Shown: positions 37,601-55,500 of the stretch, one piece after another
How positions within the stretch are numbered: the first letter of the stretch is position 1
How the letters are laid out: every line of letters starts with the position of its first letter
IMG/VR virus record: IMGVR_UViG_3300012983_001373
Location: 39,621 to 103,620 of that record
Strand: one strand, 5' to 3'
DNA length: 64,000 nt
Origin: a virus
Taxonomy: Duplodnaviria > Caudoviricetes
Program-made: the position numbers and the translations under genes
Notes under the pieces: model-generated
What the model saw: the letters and a program-made list of their open reading frames with translations, nothing else
What the model was told of the DNA's origin: nothing
Databases searched by the model: none

Positions 37601-39998
37601 CTCTTAATACAACTTCTCTTACAGCGTTACTAGATAAAGCTGCATCTTCCATCTTCTTAAATAAAGGTTGTATATATGTATCTACGACTGTTTTGCCTCT
37701 CTCTATAACATTTGATTTTACATTCGTAGACTTACTTCCTAATACATTAGTTATTTCATATAGAATGACATTTTCCAGTTGTTGAATTTGCGGTATATAA
37801 CAATCTTTTTTCATCTTATTTATTGTCGCAGAATCAAGTTTTAATTTGTCTCCTAATTTAGCAAGGTCTTTTAACCAAGCTTTCGCTTCTTTAGATAATT
37901 CTATAGCCACTGGTTTTTGTCCATAATAATCCTCATCTTTTTTTGCACTTAATGCAACTTTTAACCAGTCTTCATCAGGTACATAGAATGAAATTTTATC
38001 AGAACCCTCACAAAACTTAACAGGCATTAATGCGGATTTTACTGTTGTGTTTTGTCCATTGTTTTTATTAAAATAATATGTTTCTAAATATTCTTGAGAA
38101 TTATAATCATATTTCTTTAATAAATTTCCTTTGTGAAGAAGTCTTTGATAATAATATCTGAATATCTCCCAATGAATACATTTAGCAAATATAGGATTCA
38201 TTTCAGATACTTCACTTACGTCTGCATCTTCATAATCAATTGGTATGTCTGGCATATAAATTCTATAATTGAAATCTCTTAATGTAAGAGTTGCTTTCAA
38301 TAATCTAGGATAACCATCAACAGTCCCCATATGAAAGTTAACAAGAGTTACTGCTTCTATACCTAAGACATCATTTATATATTGACTCTCTATTGGAAGA
38401 TAAGGAGTTAATTTAAATTGAGCAAGTAAGGCGCGTAACCCATTCATATAATAAGTTCTTTTTGAACCGTTTGGTAATGTTACTTCTGTAGGTATACCAT
38501 TAATACCATAATCATCATAAAAGAATAAATCTATTTCAAGATAATGTTCTCTAGGCCCCATACCTTTAACCATAGAACCTTTACCACGAAGAATGTTTAC
38601 TCTTTCATATTCAACATTAGAAACAGAACGTATGTTTGTAGGAGGTATTAAAAATAAAACATCTCCTAGCATCATAGTACAATTTCTAAATTTTTTAAAA
38701 TCTATACCTGTTATTTTTTTATGAAAAGCATTTCTTTCATTATATGATTTTTTAGATTGTTCTTCGAATGAATCAAGAAATTTTTGATTGTCTTTATCAT
38801 AAGATGGTAAATTAAAATCAGATGCTACGTTTCCATATATATTATTTAACTCTGCAGAGTCAGAGAAATCTGGATTACCTATAACATTATCATGGTTTGC
38901 TAATATATATTTATTTGCATTTATCCATACTTCTTTACCATTAACATTCTTCTTAACATATATCTCACCAAGAAAACGTCCTAAACCGTCTGTACCAAAT
39001 GGACAATAAGATAATCTACTTAAAGGAATATCACCTACAGAATCTTGCCATTGGTCAATCATATCTGCTACAGCTTTATGAACATTCCACCAGTGGTTAT
39101 AATACAGTTTATATTTACTAGAAGTCTTTGTTGCTTTAGTTCCATTTGCATCTAATTTAAGAACTATTTCAGATGCACCACTTAACAAATCTAATAAGTC
39201 GTCTTTTGCTTTATATCCATCTGCTATAGTTCCTTCTTCTGATTCATCTTTACTAGATAGAACTCTATAATAAACATAGCCTGACTTCTTATCAGAAGAC
39301 CCCAGATATTTATCCATAGATTCTTCTTTAGTTATCTCTACATAATTTTTTCCGTTTTTATATAGTTTAACTGTATCGCTGCTATTACGTTTAGACGCTT
39401 TACCGTTTTTGTAATTACAATTAAGAAGTATCGCATCTTTTTGTTTTGCTTCAGCATATGTCATAGTTACTATGTCTTCAGGTCTCATAGCCTGTATAGC
39501 AAAGTGAGGTATTTCAGGAGCATCTATACCAACACTTCTGACTACTAATGTATCTGCACTATTTGTTTTTATTAAATTAGCAATACAATAATCATCAAAT
39601 GAATTATATGTTTTACCATTTAATGTGAAAGAAAAACCTGTATCTAAAGAGCCGAAATCAAACTTCATTGTATCGCCGTCAGTCTCATTTAATATTTTTG
39701 ATCTTTCTTCATAATCAAATCCTTTACATTTAATATAAAATACTTTGTTTTCTGAGTCATATCCAGACTGCATCATTCCTGGCGGCTCCATATAAAATGC
39801 ATTCTTAACAGCATCATCTTTATTTCCGTCAGATATGTCTTTTAAAAAATCTGACATTAAATCATCGTCCATCATTTCTTCTAATGTAGGGACAGTATCA
39901 GATATATCAAGGTCATCATAATCTTTTCTTGACTCTATCATATCTTTATATTTATCAGAAAGAGCTGCTCCAGTAGTGCCTGAATTATTTGTTGCCAC
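31692..39998 (-). CDS. Giant baseplate hub (gp27/GpD-like) protein with an N-terminal thermonuclease (SNase) domain and a late hydrophobic segment
   Basis: 2768 aa, GTG with AAAGGAG RBS. SNase motifs DGDT (aa107), RSVGIDAPE (aa154) and DGLGRFLGEIY (aa337). Hub-like PGIRIHVRMGY...VFNGKIAEV and IGDPSVKPYD...EVEGVVYSM..TGFTTTI. Upstream of the spike, gp25 and J genes. Confidence 0.7.
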   Translation of the reverse strand: MATNNSGTTGAALSDKYKDMIESRKDYDDLDISDTVPTLEEMMDDDLMSDFLKDISDGNKDDAVKNAFYMEPPGMMQSGYDSENKVFYIKCKGFDYEERSKILNETDGDTMKFDFGSLDTGFSFTLNGKTYNSFDDYCIANLIKTNSADTLVVRSVGIDAPEIPHFAIQAMRPEDIVTMTYAEAKQKDAILLNCNYKNGKASKRNSSDTVKLYKNGKNYVEITKEESMDKYLGSSDKKSGYVYYRVLSSKDESEEGTIADGYKAKDDLLDLLSGASEIVLKLDANGTKATKTSSKYKLYYNHWWNVHKAVADMIDQWQDSVGDIPLSRLSYCPFGTDGLGRFLGEIYVKKNVNGKEVWINANKYILANHDNVIGNPDFSDSAELNNIYGNVASDFNLPSYDKDNQKFLDSFEEQSKKSYNERNAFHKKITGIDFKKFRNCTMMLGDVLFLIPPTNIRSVSNVEYERVNILRGKGSMVKGMGPREHYLEIDLFFYDDYGINGIPTEVTLPNGSKRTYYMNGLRALLAQFKLTPYLPIESQYINDVLGIEAVTLVNFHMGTVDGYPRLLKATLTLRDFNYRIYMPDIPIDYEDADVSEVSEMNPIFAKCIHWEIFRYYYQRLLHKGNLLKKYDYNSQEYLETYYFNKNNGQNTTVKSALMPVKFCEGSDKISFYVPDEDWLKVALSAKKDEDYYGQKPVAIELSKEAKAWLKDLAKLGDKLKLDSATINKMKKDCYIPQIQQLENVILYEITNVLGSKSTNVKSNVIERGKTVVDTYIQPLFKKMEDAALSSNAVREVVLREQIDIKGNNNLKWSFDIHLSKSTLTEQDFANIKETVKDVIGAKSIKDVFKDNKITVDVLLKFDNNRKITSISVTGGTSIPDTLKRQSDVYDGQPQNDTNETMANEYDYTNPAAMKFRPFITSVPLNGLAIGLTNTFTELSLKIMDGSAPQYMGSSDTSIELSIITEDQTTVSMLNTLPAHAYNIAKTYRRILSCWPIRIKNQYLQMAGINEVLIDNIAVETVEGYPGLYEIKMRLTSVDRAMRQREMMQKLQSNQQTTDKSDAGISSYFDIERSLANAETYPDLDLPLLKELKNVGYSFIRYAGNERIFPDPDFYMIYGYEYTSKIIKKNIKEVFAKHLFHTKDVKEGGDKKRQVKFTDTLGQEVTTEVTSTSGFSIINQGDLAELYDEAMANIEADSKVSVPKKGNKARDEIKYSEDSAEIGNMLYYLTICDPTEGWEIQPGYVATMAPPCTNEAVEKCGSSNLSTSKTDAADKANQYAEEIFKKRKEAIELIDSILAEPINYKKFSRGEYNHLFQNEEEELMIFFNRCTEDFFKDYDKGNKLLKLLCPIDDYDKSVRANWMWDTTGAMEEDAHKPRPLGFLFMFLLAAACTQSGNEPKTDANTVSDWGPNQFNKNGLPRCKTADGRQAKSESAAIKYGKEFGMFAIRSEAVTDIKKRILPRSKVQYTSNTFKFYDNYKDGFIDPYYNKLAANSSELKEYKTKICKDHGVNTAAFIRIALVYLRKQIIDGYYFSEIDFILDNWDETKNVMLGEENHSWWEFLKGGWEETQEDWADDSFWQRTGKIVAGGANYFEWLIPGTKANEEAHDNVDEDRIEVTNGVTENQAKTINAIMDNIPETYSKSFCARLIYFILEAAANMPSGPDETTLSYLEGRRFDVLNSLTTTSIVFGNRTNSVLAKFLSATAGYMTNVQIKEKAEASTTSDSQKALNSILKEAYTSLAEDVQAYTLHSFYDMLINDKRGRLLRAFPTYYITFIDEGRKIGSWKLFDNFYNMSAISDLTVTKTRKMPADTCMFTMSNMFASYANAYDNTTREQYVDTYTIKDVFTSIFSPKTYVKKEDAIRIRKEIGDTVVLQPGIRIHVRMGYGANASKLPTVFNGKIAEVDVGDVVSIVAQGDGHELMNPLNALGEADATNIIESQSWTTLFKDLRGSMARGGLTPRNLLVQLLTAQHGGVFKTVARDWSSGRFYSDNPFGIFHFGDRRFRDIFEESELVQNLYEVVDGTLLAGVNELYPSETNTQIAPTVNTNLQDKTFWDVLQLCAYCGHGYIGAIRDFGFRSTVFLGKPNHYYAFKYNMKDGKYVEKRKPFQQFHYYDSYTDIVYNSIKASEKNMKTNATGIWEGSDWLWWGQESKTVGPMYLDINIYPEYQKSMTVDTRLVGVGNGGIDIPFITYFSEEWNMDAETNKVNKSLAERVTMNALRESVMGMYVGEICVIGDPSVKPYDRISINDAYEDMVGQMEVEGVVYSMNAQTGFTTTIYPDVIVRSEDGHEGARQSCFGGVSASCVAAVGTRLAIIEKLARIDSKLLRAAAGVISKYMAAGATESAAVAALGSGPVAGLLPAPAVAGGSFKTAISSIVGSISGTALVSTAALAAVIYVAGKNAKSYITRWIRNTQVLDVYPVFKNQRPLIAGMAGHKGSVVGYDYSEEDAKDSVQGMIASCVGWLDDSLWGGGKYLTNLFVDRDEYNKTLLNWSNTLTTLNVDQEYLENVESKGQTEALLQDLYGEVSKDFSGRSATIQTLKTKYRLATLDTKKGSDPTYKRYENLFISPYKLTNEERIKTATDTTGKSKYNITSIYSNKNVLDLYPIEDDPDIKKAVAGSHPVVKRLTIAHSQGNVKVTLPFESGSRIIRYMGVDNYTKNNALASFPIMDLPMIQEDALYVLKLILNDEHLKKKEVAFLSGARLNDPNTWKNTGFWFVISSDDATALENAVKSIQSAIYWTKNGSRKEVFTYKMSGDKCMINVYPEV

Positions 39999-40016
39999 AG
40001 AATCATCTCCTTTATT

Positions 40017-40045
40017 AGAAAAGACGGCGATTTAACGCCGCCCTT
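40017..40045 (-). terminator. Intrinsic terminator-like hairpin between the RNAP-like and hub genes
   Basis: Minus strand AAGGGCGGCG-ttaaat-CGCCGTCTTT then TCT. Confidence 0.65.
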
Positions 40046-40053
40046 AATTTATT

Positions 40054-43000
40054 TTAGAAATAATCATTTAATACGTTTTCTATATCTTTGTCGTTGTATC
40101 CTCCTGATCTAGAAGTTTTAATATTCATATTAACATTTACGCCGCCACCAACAGAACTATTAGCTACTTGTTTTAATGCTTTCTTTAATTGTCTGTTGCC
40201 TTTCTTTGTATCTCCATTTATATTGATAATATATCCTCCAGTATTATTAGGAGTCATTTCAGGCGGTGGAGTACTTCCAAAGTTAAGAGGTGGATTCTTT
40301 TGAGTTTCTTGTGTTATTGTTTCAGCGTTAGCGTCATTTAATGGGTTCCCTGATGCATAACCAGCAATAAGTAATCCTGAAGCTAATCCTAGAACACCCA
40401 TTGCCATATTCTTACCAAGTGAGCCAGAACTGTTCATTACCATTTTCGATATGTTATTACCAACTACTTCGCTTAAAGCTTCAACAGTTTGTCTACTTGT
40501 TAAGTTATCAGCAGCATCTCCCATTGCTCTTTTGATATTATCTTGTGCAATTTTTTGTTCGTTCTCTACAGCACGTTGGAAGTGAGTATTATGTGATTTA
40601 GATGTTTTTTGCCATGTAGCCATTTCTATTGCTTTACCCATCATAGTAGAATCTGTATCGAACATACCTATAGCATCTTCTAAGACAGAATCATAGTTAC
40701 CACTTCTACCGAACTTACCAAATGAATCAATCATACTTCTTGTACTTGGACTAGCTTTTCTATCTAATAAGTGTCCTGATATATCTATGTATTCATTTAT
40801 CATGTATTGTGCTTTTGCTGTTTTATCAGTTAAGTCCATACCAGATACTTGAGTAGCTAGTTCGTCATATTTATCTGCCAGTTTACCTTCGTCAATGTAT
40901 TGAGTCATCCAGTTATGTAACAATTCTCTATTTGTATATTCGCCTTGAACTTCTGCATGTTCTAAGCCTTGTTTCTTGATTCTAGAGAATATGTCTCCGA
41001 ATTCTATTAGTCTATCGTCTCCTGCTTTGATAGCAACCTTTTTAGAAGATATAGGTGCTTGTTCAAATTCATCTGCAACTTTAGAAATTATTGCTGACTT
41101 TCTAAGGTCAAACATTTCGCTGTTTGGATTACCATAATAAGCTTTAGCTGTTTGAGTTATTCCGTATAATGTACTGTTGACATTACCAGTTGCCGCTATA
41201 CCTGTTTTAGACATAGCTTCTGATAAGTAGCCACCAATTTTTAAACGTTGAATAGCTGCATTTTGAGCGCCTTCCATAACTGCATCATCAATACCTAAAG
41301 AATTTAGATTCATATCTTTTAACTCTTGCATAGCCATAAGAGCTTGGTCAAGAGCTTTACCTTCGTTCTTCATTGCAAGTATATTATCTGCATCTCCAAA
41401 CAATTCAGAGTATTTAGATTTGTCTGCTAGTAAATCTCCACTTTGTCTTACTATACCAATCATTTGATTAACAAGTTTTTCGTTATCAGCAACTTCTGCA
41501 AATGTAGGGTCATGTGCTAATGTACTTAAAGTTATGTGTCCTAATATAGAGCCTCCACCATCTACTGCAGATACTACACTTTTTCCTCCTCTTGATATTG
41601 CTTGAGCAGATAATACTTTTTCATTATCTCCCAATACCTTATCAAGAACTTTAGTATTATAATATCTATTTACTCCAGTAGCATCTTGAGCCATTTTAGT
41701 ATCTATACGTTTAAATACATCATAAACTTCTTCATCAAATCCATTGGCAATTGTTTGCTCTCTAATATAAGCTTCTCTTGCATCTCTAGTATCAAACTGC
41801 ATATTGCCCATTGTACTAATAGTTTGTTCTCTAGCTAATTCATATTCTAAATGATTAACGCCTTTATGTTCTACCATAAATCTAGAAACAGAGTCACCGT
41901 CTGAGTCAGCATTCATTTTTAATGCTGTTATCGGAGACATTAAAGTGGCATTTGGCGCTTGAACTGTATCATTTAAATAATGTCTAGTTGATACTAAAGA
42001 ATAATCTCTGATGTTCGGATAACGGTCATCTACCATTACTGTACCTTTAGTTTTTAAATGCTCTATCATTTCGTCTTTAGTCATACCTAATTTATCTAGA
42101 TAATCTTGGTCGAAGAATCCTCTTTTCTCAAATGCTTCCATTGAGTCAAAAGAATAATCTATATGAATACCTTGTTCAGTTAACTCTGCTAAAGTCTTAC
42201 CTTCAAATGTAGCTTGTTGTAATAAAGGATTCTTAGATGTATTCATTGTAGTTAAAATTTTATTTCTGTCCGTAGCTACATATATACGTTGTTGCGCAAT
42301 TTGATGAGCAGCAGTATTTTTATTAGTAAACTTATTAAGTGATTCATTTATTTCATCTATTGTATTTATTATATTTTCTTTTAATTGTGGAGCAAGTTCT
42401 TCGTTACCATGTACAGCTTGATAGTCTTTATATTGGTCAGCTAGTCTACCTGCTAGTTTGTGCCAATCACGTTTAACTTCCCCTTCTGGTAGTTCTATTC
42501 CCATACCAGGAATAGCTACATATTTATAAGTACCAAAATCATCTCCTAAGTTAAGAAGCGTATTTTGTTTAACCATTGAATCATAAGTAGCAGAAGAGCC
42601 ACTACCAAATGTATTAATATATTCCGATGGACTCATTTCTGTGAATCCCATGTCTATCATTTCATCAACAGTTATTGCTTGATTTAGATTGTTAAAGTTT
42701 TTAGCTTTTGAAATACTTCTCATGTCATACATTTTTTGAGCAGAATCAACGCCTAGTTCTGGTGCTAATTGCTGTTCTGTAAAAGCATCATACACTTCTT
42801 TAAGATGTTTATATTTATCTTGCTTTAACATATCTTCTGTTAAAACATCTTCTGTAAGAGGATTATAATAAACTTGGTCTTCTAATTGTTTTCTAAGGAA
42901 TCCAAACGTATTAACTTCATCGCCAGTATCATCTAATGCACCTATTGCAGTTATAGTTTCTTCTAGCTCTTTTCTTCTAATAGGGTCAGCTTCATTTAAC

Positions 43001-46000
43001 ATCTTATCTATGTTTTCTTTAGCCATATCCCTATCTATAACATAAGAAGATCTTAAAGTGTTTAACTCTTGGTCTCCTAATTTCATTAAATGACCTGTTT
43101 CTTCTAAATCACGTACCTTATTTTTTAAATCACCTATTCTAACATTATAATCGTCTATCATAAGCTGAGCCATGAAGTCTCCTTCAGGAGCAGCATTATT
43201 TTTATCTATATATTGTTGTCTTTCAGCTTTTAGTTCTTTTATTTTTTTAAGAACATCTACATACTCATTAGTCATACCAGATTGAGTTTCAGGGTCAATA
43301 ACAATACGATTGCCTGCAGCACCCATAGGAAGTATAGTATTGTCTTTATCTCCTACATACCACATACGTCCTATTATCTCTTCTACTTCACCTGCGTTTT
43401 TACCGTGTTTTATTTCTCTCTTATGAACAAATCTGTCTTGCATAGGAGCACCTTGTTGTCCTAACCATTCATCAGCTTCACGGAATAACGCTTCTAATGT
43501 ATCTGTATCTACTGTATCTCCATTTATGCTTTGGTCAAATAATTGTCCATTCTCAAACATTAAATGTCCGTTGACATTGAATAATTTTTTACCTTGAGTT
43601 TTAGGGTCAACACCTGCTTCTCTAGCTGGTTTAAAGAATTGATATTTGTCGTTGTACATTTCAACGAATTTATCAAGACCTAATTTACGAGTTTCAGCGT
43701 TTTCTACTTTTTCATCAGAACTATACTTACCAAGCATAGCTACAAGTTCATTAAGAGAACCAACCATCATTGTACCTTTGTTACCATGGCCTGATATATT
43801 ATCGTTCCCTATAGCTGCTATACCAGGAAGAACACCTTTTTTACCAAATAACATTTCTGTTAATACATAACTTTCTTCTTGTGCAGCTTCGAATAACTCA
43901 TCTATAGTTTTGAATCCACCTGCTTTAAGAGCGTCCATAAGTCTTTCTTCGTCTTTAAACATTGCTTTAAATGCTTGTGGAGTTGGAGTAACGTTACCTA
44001 TTAATTCTTGAGGTATACCGCCATAAGCATCCATGACTTTAGCTATATCTTCATTTAAGTATCCCATTCTTATACGTGCTAAATGGTTCATAGATTTTTC
44101 TGATTCATCTATAAGTATTTTAGGAAGAGTAGTCTTATTGATATCTTCTATAGTATAAGCAGCTTTTAATCCTTCTTTTTCAAAGATATCCATCGCTCTA
44201 CTCAACATAGAGTTACGGTTGTTTATATCAACATCTTTGAACATACCTATGTTTTTATTAAGTACTTCAGTTATTTGTTTATCAGAAAGTCTTACGCCTT
44301 CTTCACTACGTACAGTAAATTCTAATAAACCATGATTCATTTTATTAACCCAATCAGTTGTACCACCACCGAATTGAGCATAAGGTATAACATCTTCACC
44401 ATGTTTTAAAATTTCTCCCGTTACAGAAGTATATTCTAATACTCCTTCTGGAGACATTTTTACATTTCCTAATAAATTATAAAGACGCTCATATTTATCG
44501 TTAAGTATCTTTTGACTTTTAATATTCTCAGGTAAACCTATATTAATAAAGTCTTTACCTTTTGATAATGTTTGCACATTAGCTGCTATTGTTCCACCAG
44601 TAAGTTCATCAAACATTTTGGCATTGAATACCTTTTGTTGTTCAAATGTATTCATTATAGAATACGCCATTTCATAAACGTTTTTCTTTTTAGCTTCTGT
44701 TAAGAAATCCCAATTGTTTTCTCTTAATACTTTATCCATATTTGTGTCAAGTAAAGCTTCTATACCTGCTTGTCCTGTGTATAAAGTACGAGCTGTAAAT
44801 GTAGATGTAAGCTCTCCTATTCCTGCAACAGATGTATAGTTAATTACTTTGTCTTGTGCAGATTCAAATAATGCACCTTTATAAAATAAAGTATCTGCTT
44901 TGGCAGCAACTGCATCAATTGCTTCAGATGCTAAATAATAAGTATGACCTGCAGCAGTATGTTGTGGACGTCCCCCATTTGAGAATGCATTCATTAAACC
45001 AGTTTCAAATCTTAGTCCAGCGCCCATAGTAATTCTTCTTGAATAATTAGATTTATCTTTAGATGCACTGTTTAAGAAAGATGCTATGAACTTAGAATCT
45101 TCAGTACCTGTTTGACTCATTTCTCTTACTATTTGAGGCCAATAACTACCTATAAGATTCATAACAGCAGGGTCTAAATCTCCTGGTTCTAATGTTTTAC
45201 CACTTAACTTAGTACTAAGTAATTCTTTTACATTGTCAGGTAGTTGTAATTGTTCACCTATATGTCTAAGGCTACCGTTTTCTCCAAATATTTCTGGTAG
45301 TAATTTATCAAGATTATTTGTTTGTACTTTATAGTTGGCTAAATGATCACCTGGAGTATATTCATATCCAGCTTGTTGTAGTATGTCTTTACCAACTTTT
45401 TTACTATATCTTCCAAACGTAGCTATATCAAATTCTCCATTTTTTAAATCTCTTTCTAATCTTCTAGTTACTGCTTTATTAGAATGAGATAATTTCCCTA
45501 AGTTAGTCGTTACAAATGAATTCCCATTACTATCCCAATCCATTACAGGCATAAGACCAAACTCTTGATTTCCTACTTTAGCAACTAAACTTTGACCTTG
45601 CAAATGAACTTTAGGTATATGTTCAAAATCAATAGCTTTGTCTCCATATTTAAAAGCCAATTCTCCATTTCCACCTATAATCATTCCTCCGTTAGGAACA
45701 ACAGAACCAGCTTTTATTATATCAAATAATTGATTAGATATATCTTCTTCTACCTTGTTGTATAAAATAGTCTTATGTTTCTTTTGTATAAAGCCTAGAC
45801 CATCTATAGCTTTTTCGTATTCTGCTCTGTCTGGCATATAGTGTCCTAATACATTTGTTTTAACAAAAGCCATAAGTTTTTTATCAGACATTTTTGATAT
45901 ATCTTTTTTTCTATTAGTACTAGCGATTATTTCAGATATAAAACCTTCTCTTTTTCCTATACCATTTAAAGCGATATTGAAGTTTTCATCTACGACTTCT

Positions 46001-49000
46001 AAAGAAAAAATATTTGATTCTTTAATAATACCTTTAGACATATTCTTTTCTTTCTCATAAGCCATAGCTTTTACTACGTCTAAAGCAGTATTGGAAACGT
46101 TAAAATCTCGTGTGTTTTCAGTTATTTCTCGTGCGGCTTTTTCTAAATAAGGATTATCGTTTATATCAAAATCTTCACTCTTAACAAGAGTTCTTATGAA
46201 TTGAGCAACAGCATCTCTTTCATAAACTTCTGGATTTTGAGATAAATCTAAATCGCCATATCTTTGTTTAACAAGTTGTTTTACTAATGTAAATTGTTCA
46301 TTGTTTCTTTTCGTATTAACAGTGATTACATTACTATAATCATTCACATTAGACATAGTAAGAACTTGATTAACCTTAGATCTCTCTAATGCAAATTCTT
46401 CAGGTAGTCTAAATTCATATCTCTGTTTAAGATTATAAACTGTGTCATGTGCAATAGAAGAATTAGTTGCAGCTCTCATTAGTTTGACAGGGTCATCTTT
46501 ATACATTTCTTCTGCAACTCTAGCTTGTGCTGTTTCAACTACTTGTAAGAACATTTCGTTCTGCTCAGCAAATGTAAGATTGTGTTTAGTTGCATACTCA
46601 GATACTTCTTTAGTAACTGCAGCATAGAAATCTTTACGGTCGCTCATATATTCATAAGCAGTTGCAGCAGGTCTAGCCGTATTAGAAGAGATTTTAGTTT
46701 TGCCAGTTTTTTTATCTTTAAAGCCGTATAAATCTTGTAAGATTTTAGCAGCTTCTTTTAATTCATCATCGTCAAAACTCTTAGGAGATTGAGTTAGTAA
46801 ACTTACAATGTCTTCTGCATCAGCATTCTCTCCAAATTTTTTAGTGATATACTCATGTGCTTTTAAGAACTTTTTAGTATTATGATATGCTTTTTCTCCT
46901 CTTAAATACTTATTTCTAAAACGGTCAGATGCAAGAGTGGATGAACTTTTTGTAGTTGCAAGATTAACTAACTCTTCGTCAGTAAACTTGTTTCCTATTA
47001 TACCAACCATTCCATCTTGAACAACCCCTACATTTAAGATGTCTCTAGCCTCGTCTCCTGTTACTTTCCACTTACCAGCCCCACCTTCTGCTACCATTGT
47101 TAGGTTAGCTATAAAGGCAGATACATCGTCTTCTGATGCAAAGTTTTGTACATATAACATATCGTCATAACCTTTACCTGCATTCTGTCCTACAGCCAAT
47201 CTCATATGAACTTGGAATAATTCAGGGCCACTTAATTCAGGTACAAGTCTACCTAAATCTTCAGGTAGGTCTTTTGTATTAATTTTTTTAATTGCTTCTA
47301 TTGTATAAAATTGTCCTTGATTTAATTCTGTCCCCATGTAAAAATTATCTTTTACTGCAGGAGCTAAATTATCAAGATTCATTTTATAATTTGAACTGGT
47401 AAAGACTTCCCCAGTTACAGGATTGACTGTGTAATTAAATAATCCTTTACCTTGGAAATCACGTCTAGTACCTTTTCTAGCATAGAATAATTGTTCGCCA
47501 GGTTTTATTTCTTTACTGTCAAAAGTTAAACCTTGTAAGCCTACGCCACCTGCATCAGTCATAAAATAATCAAATAATGATTCATATTGTTTACCATTGA
47601 CTTCTATGCTTCTAGTAAATACATCTTCAAGTACTAATGTATCGAAGTCTGCCATGTGAGCAATACCGTCTTCAAAACGGTCTTTGAACCAAGCTTCACC
47701 TATATACTCTTGCCCAGATGTTTTACCTTTTGCCTTTTTAATTATACCAGCGTCATTATTTAATAATGTTTCTGTACCAAACGCATTTTTAATAGCATTA
47801 AATACAGGAAGAGAGTCCAGGAAGTTATCTTTAGGAACACTAAATCCAACTTGCCCTCCAAATGCCTTCTCATAATGTTCTACTATCTGTTTAGCTTGAG
47901 AAGAAGTAACGCCTAATAAATCTCTGTATGTTCTATCTAGAGTTTCTTGAGATGCCATTTTATAACCATACATCACTCTACTTAACTCTGTGTTCATTAC
48001 ACGCATATCGAAAGGTCCATGGTTTTGACCAATAACCATACCTAAATCTGCTTTACTCATATTGTTCATTTCTATAGTAGCATCCATTAAAGCAGCTATC
48101 GAATTCTTAACTCCCATATCGTTTACTGGAGTTGTGTCGTGTACTTTTCTTAACTTCTCCCAACCTTCTTTAAAATTCTCTAAACTTAAAAAGTCTTCTG
48201 CATTAACATCAGATAAACTTTCCATAACATAATAACCCTTTTGAGGATCTAGTTTAACTACTGTGCCTTTATGAGAATAAAGAGCCATACGAGATGCAGT
48301 GACACGATATTTTTCATTAGCCATGATTGCATCAGTATCGCCTTTTTCAAGTAGTTTAACAATATCATCATAAAGCTTTTTGTTCTCAGGTGTTTCTTGT
48401 ATCCCTAAAACTATATTTGTATTTTTAATATCTTTAGTTTCAAGATTTATATCTCTCATAGAGAATTCTGTTATACCAGACGGATCCCATACACCTGATT
48501 GGTTTTTACCACCGATAGTTTCTGTATCGAATATATATAAATGTCTACCACCAGGATTCTTTTTAAATTCTTTTAACTTTTCATATTTTTTATTTACATC
48601 TACAAGAGAAGCTGTTAAGCCTACTTGTTGATTAGACCAAGCAAATGTTTTAGATACGTCTTCAGTATTTATAAGTCCAGCGTATACATCAAAGAATCCT
48701 CTTGATTGTAATTGTTGAACTAATTTAGAGATTCTTTTATCTTCTACATTTACTCCGCCTATTGGATTTATTTTTTTAGTATTTATAATATCTATGCCAT
48801 TACCATCATATAGATTTATTGACTTAGGTTTAAATATATCTTCCATTTCTTCTTGATAATTAAGAACGTTAGTAGCTTTTTTAGGAGTTGTTCCTTCCAT
48901 ATTCTGCTTACGTATTTCTGCAGCCTGTTTTACTTTACGTTGTAAGGTAACAGGATTTAAAGGAGCATTAGTAAATTGTTTCTTTTTATTATAACGAGCC

Positions 49001-49002
49001 AA
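40054..49002 (-). CDS. Putative virion-associated single-chain two-barrel RNA polymerase with an N-terminal DEDDh 3'-5' exonuclease domain
   Basis: 2982 aa, TTG with AGGTGGTGA RBS. Beta'-like R2327YP and N2364ADSDGD. Beta-like H1739GNKG or K1628-x7-K1636. Exonuclease motifs FD159TE161T, QNHGPFD332 and AH449MADFD454. C-terminal hydrophobic helix. Confidence 0.75.
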   Translation of the reverse strand: MARYNKKKQFTNAPLNPVTLQRKVKQAAEIRKQNMEGTTPKKATNVLNYQEEMEDIFKPKSINLYDGNGIDIINTKKINPIGGVNVEDKRISKLVQQLQSRGFFDVYAGLINTEDVSKTFAWSNQQVGLTASLVDVNKKYEKLKEFKKNPGGRHLYIFDTETIGGKNQSGVWDPSGITEFSMRDINLETKDIKNTNIVLGIQETPENKKLYDDIVKLLEKGDTDAIMANEKYRVTASRMALYSHKGTVVKLDPQKGYYVMESLSDVNAEDFLSLENFKEGWEKLRKVHDTTPVNDMGVKNSIAALMDATIEMNNMSKADLGMVIGQNHGPFDMRVMNTELSRVMYGYKMASQETLDRTYRDLLGVTSSQAKQIVEHYEKAFGGQVGFSVPKDNFLDSLPVFNAIKNAFGTETLLNNDAGIIKKAKGKTSGQEYIGEAWFKDRFEDGIAHMADFDTLVLEDVFTRSIEVNGKQYESLFDYFMTDAGGVGLQGLTFDSKEIKPGEQLFYARKGTRRDFQGKGLFNYTVNPVTGEVFTSSNYKMNLDNLAPAVKDNFYMGTELNQGQFYTIEAIKKINTKDLPEDLGRLVPELSGPELFQVHMRLAVGQNAGKGYDDMLYVQNFASEDDVSAFIANLTMVAEGGAGKWKVTGDEARDILNVGVVQDGMVGIIGNKFTDEELVNLATTKSSSTLASDRFRNKYLRGEKAYHNTKKFLKAHEYITKKFGENADAEDIVSLLTQSPKSFDDDELKEAAKILQDLYGFKDKKTGKTKISSNTARPAATAYEYMSDRKDFYAAVTKEVSEYATKHNLTFAEQNEMFLQVVETAQARVAEEMYKDDPVKLMRAATNSSIAHDTVYNLKQRYEFRLPEEFALERSKVNQVLTMSNVNDYSNVITVNTKRNNEQFTLVKQLVKQRYGDLDLSQNPEVYERDAVAQFIRTLVKSEDFDINDNPYLEKAAREITENTRDFNVSNTALDVVKAMAYEKEKNMSKGIIKESNIFSLEVVDENFNIALNGIGKREGFISEIIASTNRKKDISKMSDKKLMAFVKTNVLGHYMPDRAEYEKAIDGLGFIQKKHKTILYNKVEEDISNQLFDIIKAGSVVPNGGMIIGGNGELAFKYGDKAIDFEHIPKVHLQGQSLVAKVGNQEFGLMPVMDWDSNGNSFVTTNLGKLSHSNKAVTRRLERDLKNGEFDIATFGRYSKKVGKDILQQAGYEYTPGDHLANYKVQTNNLDKLLPEIFGENGSLRHIGEQLQLPDNVKELLSTKLSGKTLEPGDLDPAVMNLIGSYWPQIVREMSQTGTEDSKFIASFLNSASKDKSNYSRRITMGAGLRFETGLMNAFSNGGRPQHTAAGHTYYLASEAIDAVAAKADTLFYKGALFESAQDKVINYTSVAGIGELTSTFTARTLYTGQAGIEALLDTNMDKVLRENNWDFLTEAKKKNVYEMAYSIMNTFEQQKVFNAKMFDELTGGTIAANVQTLSKGKDFINIGLPENIKSQKILNDKYERLYNLLGNVKMSPEGVLEYTSVTGEILKHGEDVIPYAQFGGGTTDWVNKMNHGLLEFTVRSEEGVRLSDKQITEVLNKNIGMFKDVDINNRNSMLSRAMDIFEKEGLKAAYTIEDINKTTLPKILIDESEKSMNHLARIRMGYLNEDIAKVMDAYGGIPQELIGNVTPTPQAFKAMFKDEERLMDALKAGGFKTIDELFEAAQEESYVLTEMLFGKKGVLPGIAAIGNDNISGHGNKGTMMVGSLNELVAMLGKYSSDEKVENAETRKLGLDKFVEMYNDKYQFFKPAREAGVDPKTQGKKLFNVNGHLMFENGQLFDQSINGDTVDTDTLEALFREADEWLGQQGAPMQDRFVHKREIKHGKNAGEVEEIIGRMWYVGDKDNTILPMGAAGNRIVIDPETQSGMTNEYVDVLKKIKELKAERQQYIDKNNAAPEGDFMAQLMIDDYNVRIGDLKNKVRDLEETGHLMKLGDQELNTLRSSYVIDRDMAKENIDKMLNEADPIRRKELEETITAIGALDDTGDEVNTFGFLRKQLEDQVYYNPLTEDVLTEDMLKQDKYKHLKEVYDAFTEQQLAPELGVDSAQKMYDMRSISKAKNFNNLNQAITVDEMIDMGFTEMSPSEYINTFGSGSSATYDSMVKQNTLLNLGDDFGTYKYVAIPGMGIELPEGEVKRDWHKLAGRLADQYKDYQAVHGNEELAPQLKENIINTIDEINESLNKFTNKNTAAHQIAQQRIYVATDRNKILTTMNTSKNPLLQQATFEGKTLAELTEQGIHIDYSFDSMEAFEKRGFFDQDYLDKLGMTKDEMIEHLKTKGTVMVDDRYPNIRDYSLVSTRHYLNDTVQAPNATLMSPITALKMNADSDGDSVSRFMVEHKGVNHLEYELAREQTISTMGNMQFDTRDAREAYIREQTIANGFDEEVYDVFKRIDTKMAQDATGVNRYYNTKVLDKVLGDNEKVLSAQAISRGGKSVVSAVDGGGSILGHITLSTLAHDPTFAEVADNEKLVNQMIGIVRQSGDLLADKSKYSELFGDADNILAMKNEGKALDQALMAMQELKDMNLNSLGIDDAVMEGAQNAAIQRLKIGGYLSEAMSKTGIAATGNVNSTLYGITQTAKAYYGNPNSEMFDLRKSAIISKVADEFEQAPISSKKVAIKAGDDRLIEFGDIFSRIKKQGLEHAEVQGEYTNRELLHNWMTQYIDEGKLADKYDELATQVSGMDLTDKTAKAQYMINEYIDISGHLLDRKASPSTRSMIDSFGKFGRSGNYDSVLEDAIGMFDTDSTMMGKAIEMATWQKTSKSHNTHFQRAVENEQKIAQDNIKRAMGDAADNLTSRQTVEALSEVVGNNISKMVMNSSGSLGKNMAMGVLGLASGLLIAGYASGNPLNDANAETITQETQKNPPLNFGSTPPPEMTPNNTGGYIININGDTKKGNRQLKKALKQVANSSVGGGVNVNMNIKTSRSGGYNDKDIENVLNDYF

Positions 49003-49016
49003 TATATCACCACCTT

Positions 49017-49030
49017 CTAATACATATTAC
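49017..49030 (-). promoter_or_regulatory. Putative phage late promoter motif GTAATA-N5-TAG
   Basis: Minus strand GTAATAtgtatTAG, directly before the RBS of the RNAP-like gene. Confidence 0.55.
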
Positions 49031-49035
49031 ACAAT

Positions 49036-49065
49036 AAGAAAAGGGCACAACTTGCGTTGGCCCTT
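49036..49065 (-). terminator. Intrinsic terminator with a GCAA tetraloop
   Basis: Minus strand AAGGGCCAAC-GCAA-GTTGTGCCCTT followed by TTCTT. Confidence 0.8.
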
Positions 49066-49069
49066 AAAT

Positions 49070-49537
49070 TTAATTTAAGTAATCTTCCACTTCTTTTCTA
49101 TATTTTATTGGAATGTCATCTATGGATTTTAAATCTCTTTCAACCATAGCTGCATAAAATCTACCCATAGGAGTTAATCCAGAACTTTCATTTAACATCA
49201 TTACTGAACCCATCATAGCATCCATCATAGAAAACATTTCATCTGCTGCTGTAAATAATATATCAAGCATCTCATTAGTTTCGTTTTGATTATTTTTTAT
49301 TTTTGTTATTTCACTTGTTTCTACTGATTGTCCTTTCTCGTTTATATATACTACACCATAATTATCTATTGAATCATATGGACTTAAATATACTTTATCA
49401 AGATGTCTTGAATTGTCAGAAGAAAAGATTTTGAATCCTTCTTTTGCTTCTAATATTCTTAATCCTGCTTTACCTATAGGAGAGTAAAGGACATAGCCTT
49501 CACCCTCTTGTATTATTTTTTTATCATGGTTTATCAT
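49070..49537 (-). CDS. Tail fibre assembly chaperone-like protein with a C-terminal CD1375/XkdX-like motif
   Basis: 155 aa. C-terminus FYAAMVERDLKSIDDIPIKYRKEVEDYLN. Lies immediately after the giant fibre gene. Confidence 0.65.
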   Translation of the reverse strand: MINHDKKIIQEGEGYVLYSPIGKAGLRILEAKEGFKIFSSDNSRHLDKVYLSPYDSIDNYGVVYINEKGQSVETSEITKIKNNQNETNEMLDILFTAADEMFSMMDAMMGSVMMLNESSGLTPMGRFYAAMVERDLKSIDDIPIKYRKEVEDYLN

Positions 49538-49552
49538 TCAATCCCCTCCTTT

Positions 49553-52500
49553 TTATTGAACTGTCCAACCTTTTTCTATTGCTATTGCTAATTGATCGTC
49601 TGAAAGTTTTGCTAAGTTTTCTTCACCTATAAATAACTTTTTAACGCTGAATGTTTTTACTAAGTTGTTGAATATAGAAAGTAAAGAATCTACTGATAAA
49701 TTAATACAATCATCTATATAGAATAATGTATCATTTATATTTTTAAATGAAATAAAATCTGTTAGCCATTTACAGTTATAGAATATACCTGCATAACCGA
49801 AGTCTACATTTATAACATCCCAAGCTGATAAATCTATTGTTCTTGTTGCATCTGATTCTACATTCCAATGATGAGCAAACATAAATGCTACACTTTGTAA
49901 ACTTGCTATATTCCAACTATTAAAGAATGAGTAATCTGCTAAACGGAATCCTCCGAACATATAACTCATGTCTTTTACATTGCGAACATCCCAATTTTTT
50001 ATAGCAGAACCATCTTTGCTTGTAGAATCATTGTAACCATATCCTCCAACAGCATAGAACATAGAGTTCATATTAGTAACACTAGATACATCCCAATCTT
50101 CTAATCCTGCAAGTGTCGTTATTTTACTTTCACCTTCAACACAGAACATATGTTTCATAGTTGTTACTTTTGAAGTTTTCCAATTCTTTAACGGAGTTAA
50201 ATTAGAAAGCTTTTTACATTCATAGAACATATAAGCCATATCTGTTACATTCTCTGTTTCAAAATTAGCTAAACCACTTATGTCTTCAAGTTCAAGACAT
50301 CCTCTGAACATACCGTTCATATTATAAACATTCTTTGTAGAATATGATTCTAAAGCGCTTATATCTTTTAAACTACTCCATCCTGCAAATAATTCTTTAA
50401 AGTTTAAACCGTCAATAGAAGACCAATTTGCTTTATTGAATATAGGAATTAATAAGTCTAAAGATTCTAATCTTGATTGACAACCTAAAATATCAATTGA
50501 AGGTATTTCTACAAATGTATCACAGATTAGCTCTACTTGAGAGTCAGTTAAATTCACATTATTAAATAATTTACTCATAGATTTTACTTTAGTTGTATCT
50601 ATCTTAGATAAGAAAGCAAATATAGCATCAAAGCTTAAAGAAGAACAATTATAGAATGCTTTGCTTATGTCTGTAACATCTACAGGTTCTAAACTATCTA
50701 AACCTATTATATCTGTAACATTAGATGCTCCATAGAATAAACCTGACAAGTTTGCTCCTATAATCATATCAGTAACATCTAGAGTAGTAAGTACGTCACA
50801 GCTAGCAAAGATATTGTCTCTATTAACTACTTTGGAAGTATCCCATCCATTCATGCCAATTGATTGTAATACTTGACAACCATAGAACATAGATGACATA
50901 TCCGTTACGTTAGAAAAATCCAATTCTTCCAATCCAATAATATCTGTTAAGCTATACATTAAATAGAATGCTTTACTACAAGTTTCTAATTCTACTCCTA
51001 CTAGATTAGTTAAATCAATAGAAGTAACATTATTTAAACCTACGTTATCATTATTAGTATAAGTATTTCTTATACCACGAGCATTAGAATCACATTTATA
51101 ATCCGCAGGAATTTCTGTTATTTTAGTTATTGAAATACCTTCTCTAGAATTTAATTTTGGCTTCTTAAGTTTTACAGTATACACTCCATGCTCGTCATAA
51201 GTATGTCTACATAAATAAGTTCCTGATGATAGTGAGTTGGCAACTGTTAAATCATCTTCTCTGCCATCTCCCCATAAAACAGCACCTTCATTTGATACTG
51301 TAAACGATACAGTTAAAGATTCTAATAGGAGAGTATCTATTACAACTTCTAAAGTATCTTCAAATTTAAATGCTAATCCTCCCCAGTTTTCAGGAATAGA
51401 TGTAACTCTATCTTTTACTCCATCTATTTTATCTATATTAACACCTGTATAGCAATCTATATGGTTTTCTCCTAAATCAGTATATTCTTTGTTCCAGTTA
51501 GATACTATTTCTTTCATTCCTGCACAGTTTTTAAAACACTCTGTAACATTAGTTGCCCATATAGGGAATTCTATATCTTTATATAATGAAGAGCAGTTTC
51601 TGAACATTCCTGAAAAATCTGTCATTTCTTCTTTTATATCTGTCATAATTATTTCTTTTACTTTACTGTTTCCATAATATGAAGAAGTATATAAGAAGCT
51701 ATTTACTTGTTTAGGATATCCCCAAGTTATATTATTTAATACAATAGTTTTTTCAACAGTATTTCCCCATAAGTTATTAGGTGTGTTATTGAAATTAGAG
51801 AAATCCCAACCAGATAAATCAAAGTATTCCATTGGTACAGAATAGAATAAACCATTAACTGTACGTACATTCTTTGTGTCCCAAGTATTTAAACCAATTA
51901 TATTTTTTAATGCTATACAATTATAGAACATATTATCTATATTAATAACATGACTGTTAACTAAATTAGAAACATTTGCTGTTTGTAATAATTGACAATC
52001 ATAGAATAAATTTCTTAAAGAATAAACTATATCACTTTCTTCATCGTTATTTAATTTCCATCCGCTTAAGTTTATTTCTTTAACTTTAGTTCTTGCGAAT
52101 ACTGAATATATAGATGTACAAGAAGTTAAATCCCAATTTTCAGCTCCTGTAAAATCAGTTATACCAGAACCATCAAATGTTGATTCTAAAAATTCTAAGC
52201 CTGATGTATCCCATAGATTCATACCTGATAAAGCTGTTAATTTTGGACAATTGTAGAATACAAAACCTAGTTCTTTACATACATTATGAACTTTAAAGTT
52301 TTCTACTGTATCTAAAACTTCACAACCTGAGAATGTATTATTAAATACAGTACATTGAGATAAGTCTCCAAACTTAATTGTTTTAAGTTTTTTATTATCT
52401 ATAAACGTTCTAGATAAATCAGTTGGAATACCACATGTAAAATCAACATATTCTAAGTTTTTACAATCACTGAACATATTAGTATAATCAATAGGTGTAT

Positions 52501-55500
52501 TTGGAACTTTGTGAACCTTAGTTAAATATTTTTTCATAGCTTCAGGTGGAAGAGATTCTCCGTCTCCTAATAAAACTTTACCTTTGATTATATAAGCTCC
52601 TGGGTTTTCATAAGTATGAGTCAATTCGCCTTGGGTAATTGTTCCATCGCCCCAATCTATTCTACCGTTATCTAATAAACAGTCTTTGTTAGGGAATACA
52701 ATTTTTACATTGATAGTATCTGTAGTTAATTCATATACAGCAGTATTTTCATTTTGGAAGTTATTTCCTCCCCATTCAACAGGTATTCTATCTCGTCCTA
52801 CTTCATATTCTGTTAAGAAAATTTCTTCTCCATTGAATTTAGTAATTACTTCACAGCCAGAATAACAATCTTCTGTAACTAAGTCTTTACTTATATATTC
52901 TGTTTCCCAGTTAGTAGTTACGTCTTCTAAAGCAGAACAGTTTTTAAATGCGCTGCTTACGTCTAACACTGTGTCTTTAAATGCTATGTCTTGTTTTGCA
53001 TCAGAGCCTTCAAAACATTGTTTAAAGTTAGTTACTTTAGCAGGTATACGTAATAACTTAGGATTTTCTAAATTAGTACAGTTAGCGAATGTAGATTCCA
53101 TATGAACCAAATTAGGAAGTCTGTCTAATAAGTTATTAATTTTTAATGCATCAACTTTACAGTTTTTAAATACACTACTGATACTTGTTATCTTATCTAA
53201 CATAGCGTCACATTTGATTCCATATTCTCCACTTAAATCAAAACCTTTAAATGAATTATCTAGAGTAGAGCCAACATAGTTAGTTAAGTCGTAAGTACCA
53301 CTCACAGGAACCACGAACTCTTCAGGAGTTTTGTTTTTATTTATTATCGGTATTTCATTTTTCGGAGCTAAATTTAAGTTCTCTGCATGAGTTAAACTTA
53401 ATCCAGTAAAATCACAAGTTTCAAGTATTGCTCCAGATAAATCATATCCTTCCCAATCTTTATCTACTATATGTTCACTAGGTCCAGTTATAATAGATTT
53501 AATTTCATTAGGCATAGGGAAATCTATATTCTTTATAGTTGTAGGAACTAATATACGTTTTAATCCTTGTAATCTTCTAGCGTTTGAAGATATAGTGTTT
53601 ACTCCGAACATTGCACTAAGGTCAACTACAGCGCCTTCTGCAAATGCTATCTTATATTTTTCTGGGTCACTTACATTAAATGTAACTTGAGGTATTTGAG
53701 GAGTATCTGCTATGACGATAGATTGGAATGCACTAACATCATTGATACCAAGCATATCATCAAATCCAACACCTACTAAGTTTTTAAGTGATTGTAATTT
53801 AAGTGTTTTTAATTTATTAAATCCTGAGAATGACATAAACACTAATCTATCCATTGAGTTAGTAATTGCTAAATCTTGTACATATTTAAATGGACTAAAA
53901 TCTATTTCATCATCTTCTTCATATGGATAATGTAATGTTTGGATTTTATTACAGTTTGTTATTTGTACTGTTTGAAGATTTCTACAGTATTCATCTGTAG
54001 CCATATTAGAAGGTAAACCTACACGTTTTAAATGTGTTTGATTTGATATCTGAACAACTTGTGTTGTAGCAGGATAATAAAGTTCTTCTAAGTTCCCTCC
54101 TGATTGCATTGTGTAAATAGCTGTTAAAGATGTGTTATAACAGTTACAGTATCTTAGATATTTACATTCTTGTATGTTAAGAGTAGGTTGCGCCCCAATA
54201 CCTGTACCTAAAGCAGGTGAATTACTTATGTCTATTCTTTGTAATTTAGTACATACAGATAAGTCTGTATTTATTAGATTAGGTGAATGACATTCTATTT
54301 CTGTAAGTCTATCTGCATTAGCGATAAGCATTGTAGTAGGTTCTAGATTAGAAACATCTCCTAGAGATTTTAAATAATGTCCACCATAAACCATTATCTC
54401 TTGGTCAGTTGCTGTTGGCATATTGTATTCAAATCTAACTGTTTCTCCACGTCCAACTCTTTTAACTTGAAGACCTGTGTTATTTGCTTCATCTCTCCAT
54501 TTAACACGAAGATACATAGGGATATATGTTTGTATATCAAGATAAACATGACCTAACTTACTTGAACGTAATGTTATATAATCCGCTGTAGAAACTGTAT
54601 AACCGAATAATGTATCACAATATAATAATCTTTCTCTTAACCATTTTCTTATATGATGTTCTCCACTACCATGAAGAGCATATAGATAAGATGATTCATA
54701 GTTAAGATACTTAGTCTGCATGTCTATGTTATAATATTTAGCAGGTATCTTTTGTATTTGTTCTTCTAATAAGTACTTCATCATATTCTCAACTGTAAAA
54801 TGTTTTTGTCTCATTATTGCATATTGAGCTTCTAGTTCAGCTGCGAATAATTCTCTTACTCTTCTCCATAAAACAGAACCAGTTGTATTAAATACGTGTT
54901 CGTCTCCCATTTCGATATCCATATCAAATTTTAAGAACCCTGTATTGTCTAGTCCTAGTGTTGTATCGGCGTCGTATACTTGTGGATACCATATACGTCC
55001 ATCCCATGTTGCAAGTTTCATATTTTTACCAAGTGAATCGACTGCTCCAACAACATATACATATAAGAAGTATCTTAATAAATATTGTAAGTTGAAATAA
55101 CGAGGCATGTTGTCTTTAAAGTCTTCGTCAGAAGAATCATTTACCCATTCAACTAAACGAATTAATTCTTCCATACTATCGTTTCCTGCTGCTCTAGTTG
55201 GTGGGAATAAGCATTCAAAGTCTGATTTGTAATAATCAAGTTTACTTTTCCCTGATGCTTCTGTCCATTTATAGAATGCACCTGCTGTTGTATCAGAGTT
55301 CGCAGACACTTCGTATACTAAACAAGTTCCAGTATCTTCATAACCATAAGACTTAGTAGAATAACGGTCTAAGTTAAAATTGTAAACACCTTGTAATTGG
55401 TCATTTATATACATTAAACAAGGGAATCCATTTACAGTATTTCTTACATTAGGATTCTTTTGTTGAGCAGGGTTTTTTTCATCATATAAACATTCATTAA

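Follow-up and report, generated by a model that had tools for sequence, protein, structure and literature searches.

What would a phage do with a nuclease of the DnaQ type that is carried on the same polypeptide as an RNA polymerase and encoded among its tail genes? The question is raised by one gene in a stretch of 64,000 nucleotides (the window; positions 39,621 to 103,620 of the IMG/VR virus record IMGVR_UViG_3300012983_001373, Caudoviricetes), a series of minus-strand phage structural genes with about 30% GC. The gene is an open reading frame (ORF) of 2982 amino acids (aa) without internal stop, and its product comprises, in this order, an N-terminal leader, a DEDDh exonuclease, a post-exonuclease region, a long linker region, a single-chain two-barrel RNA polymerase (RNAP) and a conserved C-terminal module. 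An earlier note on this DNA had read the exonuclease motifs and proposed that the fused enzyme, delivered with the genome, could proofread or trim transcripts, process genome ends or destroy host defence nucleic acids. The analysis presented here argues very strongly for a real and active DEDDh domain fused to a real RNAP. It also leads to a best explanation that is held tentatively, namely a two-enzyme protein delivered by the tail, whose exonuclease would act on DNA ends at infection.

The gene belongs to a jumbo phage of the ruminant gut. The parent virus record measures 103.6 kb with an estimated completeness of 39%, near-complete related gut genomes reach 242-265 kb, and the sequencing runs that best hold the gene come from goat, bovine and unspecified animal gut. 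In an independent sequencing run, a single goat-gut contig spans window positions 39500-49500 with 244 substitutions and 0 gaps, and because it covers the whole gene gap-free the fusion is no assembly artefact. An RNA run (X16) yielded short scattered contigs, too fragmentary to show expression of the gene.

The exonuclease and polymerase domains

The ORF and its N-terminal features are as follows.

40054-49002, minus strand: whole ORF, 2982 aa, occupying the slot of gp146 of phage 0305phi8-36, directly upstream of the baseplate hub
47593-48555, minus strand: DEDDh (DnaQ-like) 3'-5' exonuclease domain, aa ~150-470 (AlphaFold2 model with a predicted local distance difference test score, pLDDT, of 88; VIA-align; ESM Atlas)
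48520-48528, minus strand: ExoI, D159 and E161, first strand of the model (motif reading, homolog alignment, AlphaFold2)
48007-48024, minus strand: ExoII, N327-x4-D332 (motif reading, homolog alignment)
47815-47817, minus strand: invariant D396, conserved D-T/S-L position of DnaQ-like domains (homolog alignment and alignment with E. coli DnaQ)
47641-47658, minus strand: ExoIII, H449-x4-D454, DEDDh subtype (motif reading, homolog alignment)
47083-47565, minus strand: conserved post-exonuclease region, aa 480-640, with a related segment after ExoIII in gp146 and in CDS0027 of the Moorella phage MTATph1

The DEDDh signature is complete and stands where the earlier note had placed it, within one ORF: the ExoI motif covers aa 156-165 (window 48508-48537), ExoII aa 324-332 (48007-48033) and ExoIII aa 448-454 (47641-47661). 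The long insertions that had been noticed between the motifs were also borne out, the distances from ExoI to ExoII and from ExoII to ExoIII being 173 and 117 aa as compared with ~90 and ~60 in E. coli epsilon, with two large insertions at about aa 200-300 and aa 340-390. These insertions likely explain how the domain escapes Pfam, PHROGs and PDB sequence searches, which gave no significant exonuclease-domain match for the protein or its parts. A partial-family profile found weak TREX-type matches only, at the correct motifs (E 0.05-2.8). With an insertion-free family profile, P was 3.6e-9 for the ICP1 exonuclease and 1.6e-4 for RNase T, a value only just better than that of the best of 900 shuffles (2.2e-4), and tblastn of the exonuclease region against cultured phages returned only the ICP1 exonuclease, at E 0.1.

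Homologs were found abundantly, always in the same large architecture. A query with aa 140-520 retrieved 39 homologs, nearly all of ~3000 aa, an exhaustive phmmer search gave 52 representatives, every one a long protein or a fragment, and a search started from the RNAP side recovered the same family; no stand-alone homolog of the exonuclease in the size range of 187-597 aa was found. Among 45 diverse homologs (18-51% identity; mean column identity 24%), 28 positions are invariant. They include D159, E161, T162, N327, D332, D396, H449 and D454 of the exonuclease, and most of the remaining ones are RNAP residues. Since the catalytic residues are invariant where the mean column identity is 24%, the DEDDh motifs are not due to chance. 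The survey of homologs for joint occurrence of both signatures, suggested in the earlier note, gave a uniform answer: the five catalytic residues (D159, E161, D332, H449, D454) and a DxDGD are present together in 87/87 full-length homologs. Between the window gene and one relative, dN/dS was 0.12 in the exonuclease, 0.09 and 0.14 in the RNAP halves, and 0.18-0.23 in the termini and the inter-barrel region.

The structure prediction that had been called for, run on aa 140-520 with AlphaFold2, produced a DEDD fold with a pLDDT of 88.2 and a predicted template modelling score of 0.85. The first strand carries D159 and E161, N327 comes after a later strand with D332 in the helix that follows, and H449 stands ahead of the helix bearing D454, so that the layout of the model is the canonical one for DEDDh enzymes. 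When the model was compared with 48,161 chains by VIA-align, all of the best 50 matches belonged to the DEDD/DnaQ-like exonuclease superfamily. The exonuclease domain of S. aureus DinG came first (9ii8, Z 12.1), and E. coli Pol III epsilon (1j53) reached Z 11.8 with 171 of 174 residues aligned at a root-mean-square deviation of 3.1. A PolC-type polymerase (Z 11.3), Plex9/TREX1 (11.2) and ExoI (11.0) were also found, and the six best matches (Z 11.0-12.1, epsilon twice) are mainly DNA exonucleases. The RNA-type matches comprised 3'hExo (Z 10.4), RNase T (10.0) and REXO2 (9.6), as well as CAF1 and PARN, and the list further included Cap18 and diDNases. In an ESM Atlas feature search the nearest named clusters bear RNase_T, and one neighbour is named as an oligoribonuclease family. 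Foldseek against the PDB gave a best E of 3e-3, a level taken up by noise from UvrC and Hsp70, with DnaQ and TREX2 at high probability. The domain thus has the fold and the five catalytic residues in common with the DnaQ-like DEDDh exonucleases (epsilon 1j53, DinG 9ii8, PolC, ExoI, TREX1/Plex9, RNase T), but it carries ~150 extra residues in the two insertions, shares 12-17% identity with them and is joined to a probable virion giant instead of a DNA polymerase or helicase.

The polymerase occupies two further segments of the chain.

43285-45009, minus strand: beta-like RNAP half, aa 1332-1906, with invariant E1454, K1628, K1636 and H1739 (VIA-align, homolog alignment)
41848-42285, minus strand: beta'-like catalytic barrel, about aa 2240-2385, with R2327-x-P2329 and D2366-x-D2368-G-D2370 (Foldseek, homolog alignment)

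Both folds were recovered in the same chain, as the claim of a fusion to a two-barrel RNAP had implied. The AlphaFold2 model of aa 1300-2450 has a pLDDT of 83.8. By VIA-align, aa 1332-1906 matched the phiKZ nvRNAP (7ogp_C, Z 11.2) and the AR9 enzyme (7s00_C, Z 10.9), followed by plastid, vaccinia and Pol I/III/IV beta-type chains at Z 9-10, and Foldseek matched the RNAP model with bacterial beta' chains (best E 1.6e-4). D2366/D2368/D2370, R2327/P2329 and K1628/K1636 are invariant in the 45 homologs, and the Asn preceding DxDGD is variable. The spacing K1628-x7-K1636 is that of K1065/K1073 in E. coli beta, and the Arg of R-x-P occupies the ribose-recognising position of RNAPs. The Lys of 'HGNKG' (aa 1739-1743), which a companion to the earlier note had mapped to beta, varies freely. 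The lysine region aligned poorly in the three orthologs from the cultured Bacillus phages WH1, Edson and KLEB27-3.

The chain is modelled as a fused single-chain two-barrel enzyme of the cellular clade, not a YonO/eRdRP-like one. QDE-1 reached only Z 7.5 against the RNAP model, and no match to PF05183 was obtained for the window protein, WH1, KLEB27-3, G002 or G004, while the 0305phi8-36 record matched at E 1e-20. MTATph1 and Edson had no PF05183 match either, in a search without any match and thus uninformative. The best structural matches of the RNAP core, the phiKZ and AR9 RNAPs (7ogp, 7s00) and the cellular beta/beta' chains (Z 9-11), are multi-subunit enzymes without a DEDDh domain, unlike the window protein. 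A tblastn search of cultured phages with the RNAP core and two distant homologs gave no match.

The tail-module slot and its other occupants

Cultured relatives were reached through the neighbouring hub gene, which defines the slot, and the C-terminal module provides the second link.

31692-39998, minus strand: baseplate hub, 2768 aa, homolog of 0305phi8-36 gp147 (tblastn, PHROG match)
40057-40425, minus strand: C-terminal module with a Gly/Ala-rich hydrophobic helix, aa 2866-2884, common to gp146 and MTATph1 CDS0031

With the hub as query, tblastn gave E 1e-61 to 3e-76 against five cultured phages, namely 0305phi8-36, WH1, Edson, KLEB27-3 and MTATph1. Baseplate genes of the gp25-like and J-like kinds accompany the hub downstream of the RNAP gene, and almost all of the loci examined have this order. 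The order gp145-like gene, fusion gene, hub was found in five metagenomic records (G002-G005, G007) and likewise in cultured WH1, Edson and KLEB27-3. The true orthologs are gp095 of vB_BceM_WH1 (BCO16148.1), XXQ04534.1 of Edson and gp034 of vB_BauM_KLEB27-3 (UNY39803.1), which share the N-terminal DEDDh domain, R-x-P, DxDGD, the C-terminal module and the slot with the window protein, and differ from it in length (2434-2515 aa) and sequence (~15% identity). They are annotated merely as structural or hypothetical, the fusion being unannotated. The second-best viral structure match, a BFVD entry of 1257 aa, is possibly half of WH1 gp095.

The same slot is filled in 0305phi8-36 by gp146 (ABS83704.1), whose GenBank record carries the note 'identified as virion protein by mass spectrometry'. 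Like the window protein, gp146 has a homologous C-terminal module and the full DEDDh motif set, but it lacks the RNAP motif, its DEDDh region lies in mid-chain (aa 1220-1690) and its phage encodes a separate eRdRP/YonO-like RNAP, gp99 (PF05183). The motifs of gp146 (L038:11612-19225) occur in order as D1223/E1225, N1441-x4-D1446, D1486 and H1685-x4-D1690, with very large insertions. An ordered four-motif score, trained on the metagenomic family only and controlled with 100 shuffles, reached 42.5 for gp146 (shuffles: mean 2.5, maximum 17.3) and 48.8 for MTATph1 CDS0027 (D870/E872/D994/H1053/D1058; shuffle maximum 16.2), as compared with 40.8 and 49.1 for true orthologs and about 0 for neighbouring giants. 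CDS0027 also matches Pfam RNase_T at 24.2 bits (cut-off 24), and its blastp alignment with gp146 (E 6e-10) takes in ExoIII and the segment after it. No DxDxD is present in gp146 or CDS0027, and no DxDGD in any frame of the MTATph1 locus. In MTATph1 the slot gene (L040:12006-19362) is split by a transposase and an IstB-like ATPase gene, an insertion that reads as IS21-like, with the DEDDh part CDS0027 and the C-terminal module CDS0031 on its two sides. The profile of the C-terminal module scored gp146 at P 4e-6 and CDS0031 at P 1.5e-9, the best of 2100 shuffles being 2.6e-4. Judged from these sequences, the slot protein seems to be a modular scaffold in which the C-terminal module and the DEDDh domain are kept and the RNAP is optional. 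Word-based scans, which reach close relatives only, gave no further RNAP-less or chromosomal orthologs, only a 100%-identical piece of gp146.

The DEDDh set of gp146 was without prior annotation in its record or in the paper that described it as a 'hypothetical tape measure protein' (Hardies et al. 2007, PMC2147016). That assignment was made mainly by tail-length correlation, and the chaperone genes of 0305phi8-36 are 'one gene removed' from gp146 (PMC2147016). Because the label rests on tail length and the chaperones lie one gene away, gp145 is an alternative tape measure. In the cultured phages a gp145-like gene of ~1900-2700 aa stands between the tail chaperones and the fusion slot, and it lies directly upstream of the fusion gene in G002-G005 and G007; none was found in the window's own 104-kb fragment, which is 39% complete. 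The fusion protein is not the first large gene product after the chaperone pair, which lowers the case for a ruler (tape measure) role without removing it. Most of the 2982-aa chain is globular enzyme.

Several further features were observed around the slot. In the window and in L001-L004 the position upstream of the RNAP gene, taken by the gp145-like gene in more distant relatives, is filled by a CotH/LTD block; this block consists of a 2690-aa protein with CotH kinase, LamG, LRR, PKD and DUF285 domains (49553-57625), preceded by a 788-aa LTD/purple-acid-phosphatase protein (57663-60029). The gp145-like gene of KLEB27-3 (L041:4817-11970) is split into gp031 and gp033 around the 211-aa gp032, possibly an intron-borne insertion. 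The gp145-like giant of 2706 aa at L009:1859-9979 has an extra N-terminal region in which a PD-(D/E)xK/Cas4-like pattern was seen by eye at ~aa 265-300, and SNase-like motif fragments in the hub N-terminus (window 38900-39700) may represent a second nuclease cargo of the tail module. An element containing GTAATA stands before the RNAP gene in the window (49003-49070) and in L012, L014, L015, L016 and L018, usually after a terminator-like hairpin. Finally, the structural genes of the complete 263-kb genome G002 read through TGA (L013, 9500-27400). With table 4 its RNAP ORF extends over ~2950 aa, each of the 7 in-frame stops of its hub is TGA and its gp145-like gene (C1:211228-214944) contains 12 TGA, while neither DnaE gene has an in-frame stop. 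Stop-codon recoding thus looks, from the sequence, to be used mainly in late genes.

Proposed delivery and role of the exonuclease

The nearest precedent for such a protein is gp96 of the Thermus phage P23-45, a virion two-barrel RNAP fused to the tape measure (Chaban et al., Nat Commun 2024, PMC10770324; bioRxiv 10.1101/2022.12.01.518664). Both are single-chain two-barrel RNAPs within a giant protein of the tail module, the window gene lying next to the hub. For P23-45 gp96, injection into the host and transcription of the first genes have been proposed, and the same is proposed here for the window protein. They differ in that gp96 has 5002 aa with its RNAP at the N-terminus and belongs to a phage with a tail of 800 nm, whereas the window protein comes with a contractile tail, has a central RNAP preceded by DEDDh and finds its best matches in phiKZ, AR9 and cellular subunits.

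By this analogy the window protein is probably virion-borne. Packaging and delivery are suggested because of the slot, the mass spectrometry note on gp146, the hydrophobic C-terminal helix and the likeness to gp96; the delivery with the genome advanced in the earlier note is supported in this indirect way, through an ortholog of the slot. The protein would be a gp146-type giant of a contractile-tail module like that of 0305phi8-36, packaged in the core of the virion tail and entering the host at infection. The RNAP on the chain would start early transcription. The DEDDh domain, apparently the more widely kept cargo of the slot, would be a two-metal 3'-5' exonuclease that works independently of the RNAP and of nascent RNA, and would trim or resect the 3' ends of the incoming linear genome, to aid recombination or circularisation or to provide an entry site for the RNAP. 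That its main job is independent of the transcript of the RNAP is rather likely, because the DEDDh set persists in the RNAP-less gp146 and MTATph1. Processing of DNA ends specifically is put forward with more reserve; DNA ends are favoured in view of the DNA exonucleases that are the domain's nearest structural neighbours, and because the few injected copies would arrive at the leading end of the genome.

Several points weigh against this account. The gap in Z between DNA- and RNA-specific DEDDh matches is only 1-2 units and fold alone leaves the substrate unfixed, both substrate and activity of the exonuclease being predicted, as is the catalytic activity of the RNAP. No member of the RNAP-bearing family has one predicted activity without the other (87/87), as functional coupling would also give, and a resecting nuclease would endanger the phage's own genome unless limited. 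The RNAP-less evidence consists of two proteins and motif statistics, and the split MTATph1 gene may be decaying. The whole-domain profile scores gp146 at P 3e-4, a level similar to that of the best shuffle; because gp146 is too diverged for that profile, the ordered-motif test and the bridge through MTATph1 are what its assignment as DEDDh depends on. In addition, WH1 gp095 and KLEB27-3 gp034 are labelled 'structural protein' on no traceable basis, no virion proteomics was found for any RNAP-bearing member, and no paper on WH1 or KLEB27-3 was found. A mechanistic coupling of exonuclease and RNAP in an injected machine, which would resect the genome end for sigma-free RNAP loading or edit RNA, is conceivable but doubtful.

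Other roles for the domain have been considered. As an injected anti-defence or host-takeover nuclease, it would destroy DNA or RNA oligomers, retron msDNA, guide nucleic acids or broken host DNA. Such a role is independent of the RNAP and so fits the RNAP-less gp146 and MTATph1, Plex9/TREX1, Cap18 and diDNases are among the structural matches, other tail giants of the lineage seem to bear nuclease-like cargo (the PD-(D/E)xK-like stretch seen by eye in the L009 gp145-like protein), and phage proteins that are injected and combine several domains, effector domains among them, are on record (PMC5512222). Few copies per virion nevertheless amount to a small dose against host DNA. Moreover, sporadic loss or exchange is usual for conflict effectors, yet the domain is fixed and intact in 87/87 proteins down to 18% identity, which makes this role unlikely. 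Transcript proofreading or 3' trimming, in which misincorporated or backtracked 3' ends would be removed or the transcripts of the fused RNAP trimmed, accounts well for the co-retention with the RNAP active site (87/87), and the DEDDh family includes RNases (RNase T, 3'hExo, CAF1, PARN) as well as the oligoribonuclease family named in the Atlas. It has nevertheless lost ground since the earlier note: the two slot orthologs gp146 and MTATph1 CDS0027 keep the five DEDDh residues without an RNAP motif, the best structural matches are DNA exonucleases, and the exonuclease domain stands ~860 residues away from the polymerase core. Two-barrel RNAPs enclose the 3' end of the RNA in their active centre, so that only released or backtracked RNA would be reachable. 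This role, too, is improbable.

A smaller chance still is given to the domain as a substitute for epsilon, which, perhaps after cleavage, would proofread the phage's DnaE-type Pol III. Epsilon is among the top structural matches, and five related genomes (205-265 kb) encode DnaE, with two paralogs each, while neither PF00929 nor PF13482 was detected as a gene on its own; the Pfam models miss the window domain too, however, so this lack of another epsilon is weak evidence. All seven aligned phage DnaE sequences (7/7) keep the PHP metal-ligand motifs, a pattern seen in self-proofreading DnaEs such as M. tuberculosis DnaE1, and the domain is fused into a gene of the late tail module, away from the replication genes. 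It is very unlikely that the chain is instead a DNA polymerase with two barrels, following the logic of PolD and equipped with a proofreading exonuclease of its own. Fusion of a 3'-5' exonuclease to the polymerase is the hallmark of DNA polymerases, two-barrel ones exist (PolD, PMC7281927) and the Asn before DxDGD varies in the family, but the catalytic Asp triad and the invariant R-x-P Arg are kept, the matches are RNAP beta and beta' chains with PolD absent among those listed, the phages already have two DnaEs and the exonuclease occurs without any polymerase. An artefact or relic, whether from chimeric assembly, as motifs arisen by chance or as a structural domain without activity, is hardly credible. 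The window domain has no significant Pfam, PHROG or PDB sequence match, as would suit such a reading; against it stand the gap-free goat-gut contig, the architecture shared by 87 homologs and three cultured phages, the invariant catalytic residues and the confident model.

As a separate observation on the DnaE genes, the two paralogs per genome in G002-G006 (e.g. L032-L037) are divergent with intact PHP ligand motifs, and the window's own genome holds one DnaE that is split into two ORFs (G000:C1:18087-21185).

Known polymerase fusions and the reach of the finding

A DEDDh-RNAP fusion was not described in the literature searched, a coverage that leaves out subscription journals; the earlier note, which knew of no characterised example, thus agrees with this search, and a DnaQ-type exonuclease on a two-barrel RNAP is an architecture new to that literature. 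A nuclease is never mentioned in the P23-45 preprint (bioRxiv 10.1101/2022.12.01.518664), and WH1, KLEB27-3 and 0305phi8-36 are not listed in the accessible parts of the supplements of PMC10770324. In group 1 Bacillus jumbo phages an HD phosphohydrolase is fused to beta parts (PMC7824862), which is another enzyme than the DEDDh domain of the window. Iyer and Aravind reportedly noted in 2012 RNase H-fused NCgl1702-like RNAPs in mobile elements, with a nuclease of a different family from DEDDh.

The significance is tempered by the predicted nature of both activities and by the precedent of a tape-measure-fused RNAP. The finding nonetheless extends tail-borne virion RNAPs from one Thermus lineage to the widespread 0305phi8-36-like jumbo myophages, which are common in ruminant and other gut samples and include three cultured Bacillus phages. 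It also suggests that gp146, labelled a 'tape measure' since 2007, be re-annotated as a nuclease-carrying virion protein. If the coupled machine were the true one, it would be the first known two-barrel DNA-dependent RNAP with a dedicated DnaQ-type nuclease, in widespread jumbo myophages with cultured members. The RNAP-less orthologs provide a natural comparison by which the job of the nuclease can be separated from transcription.

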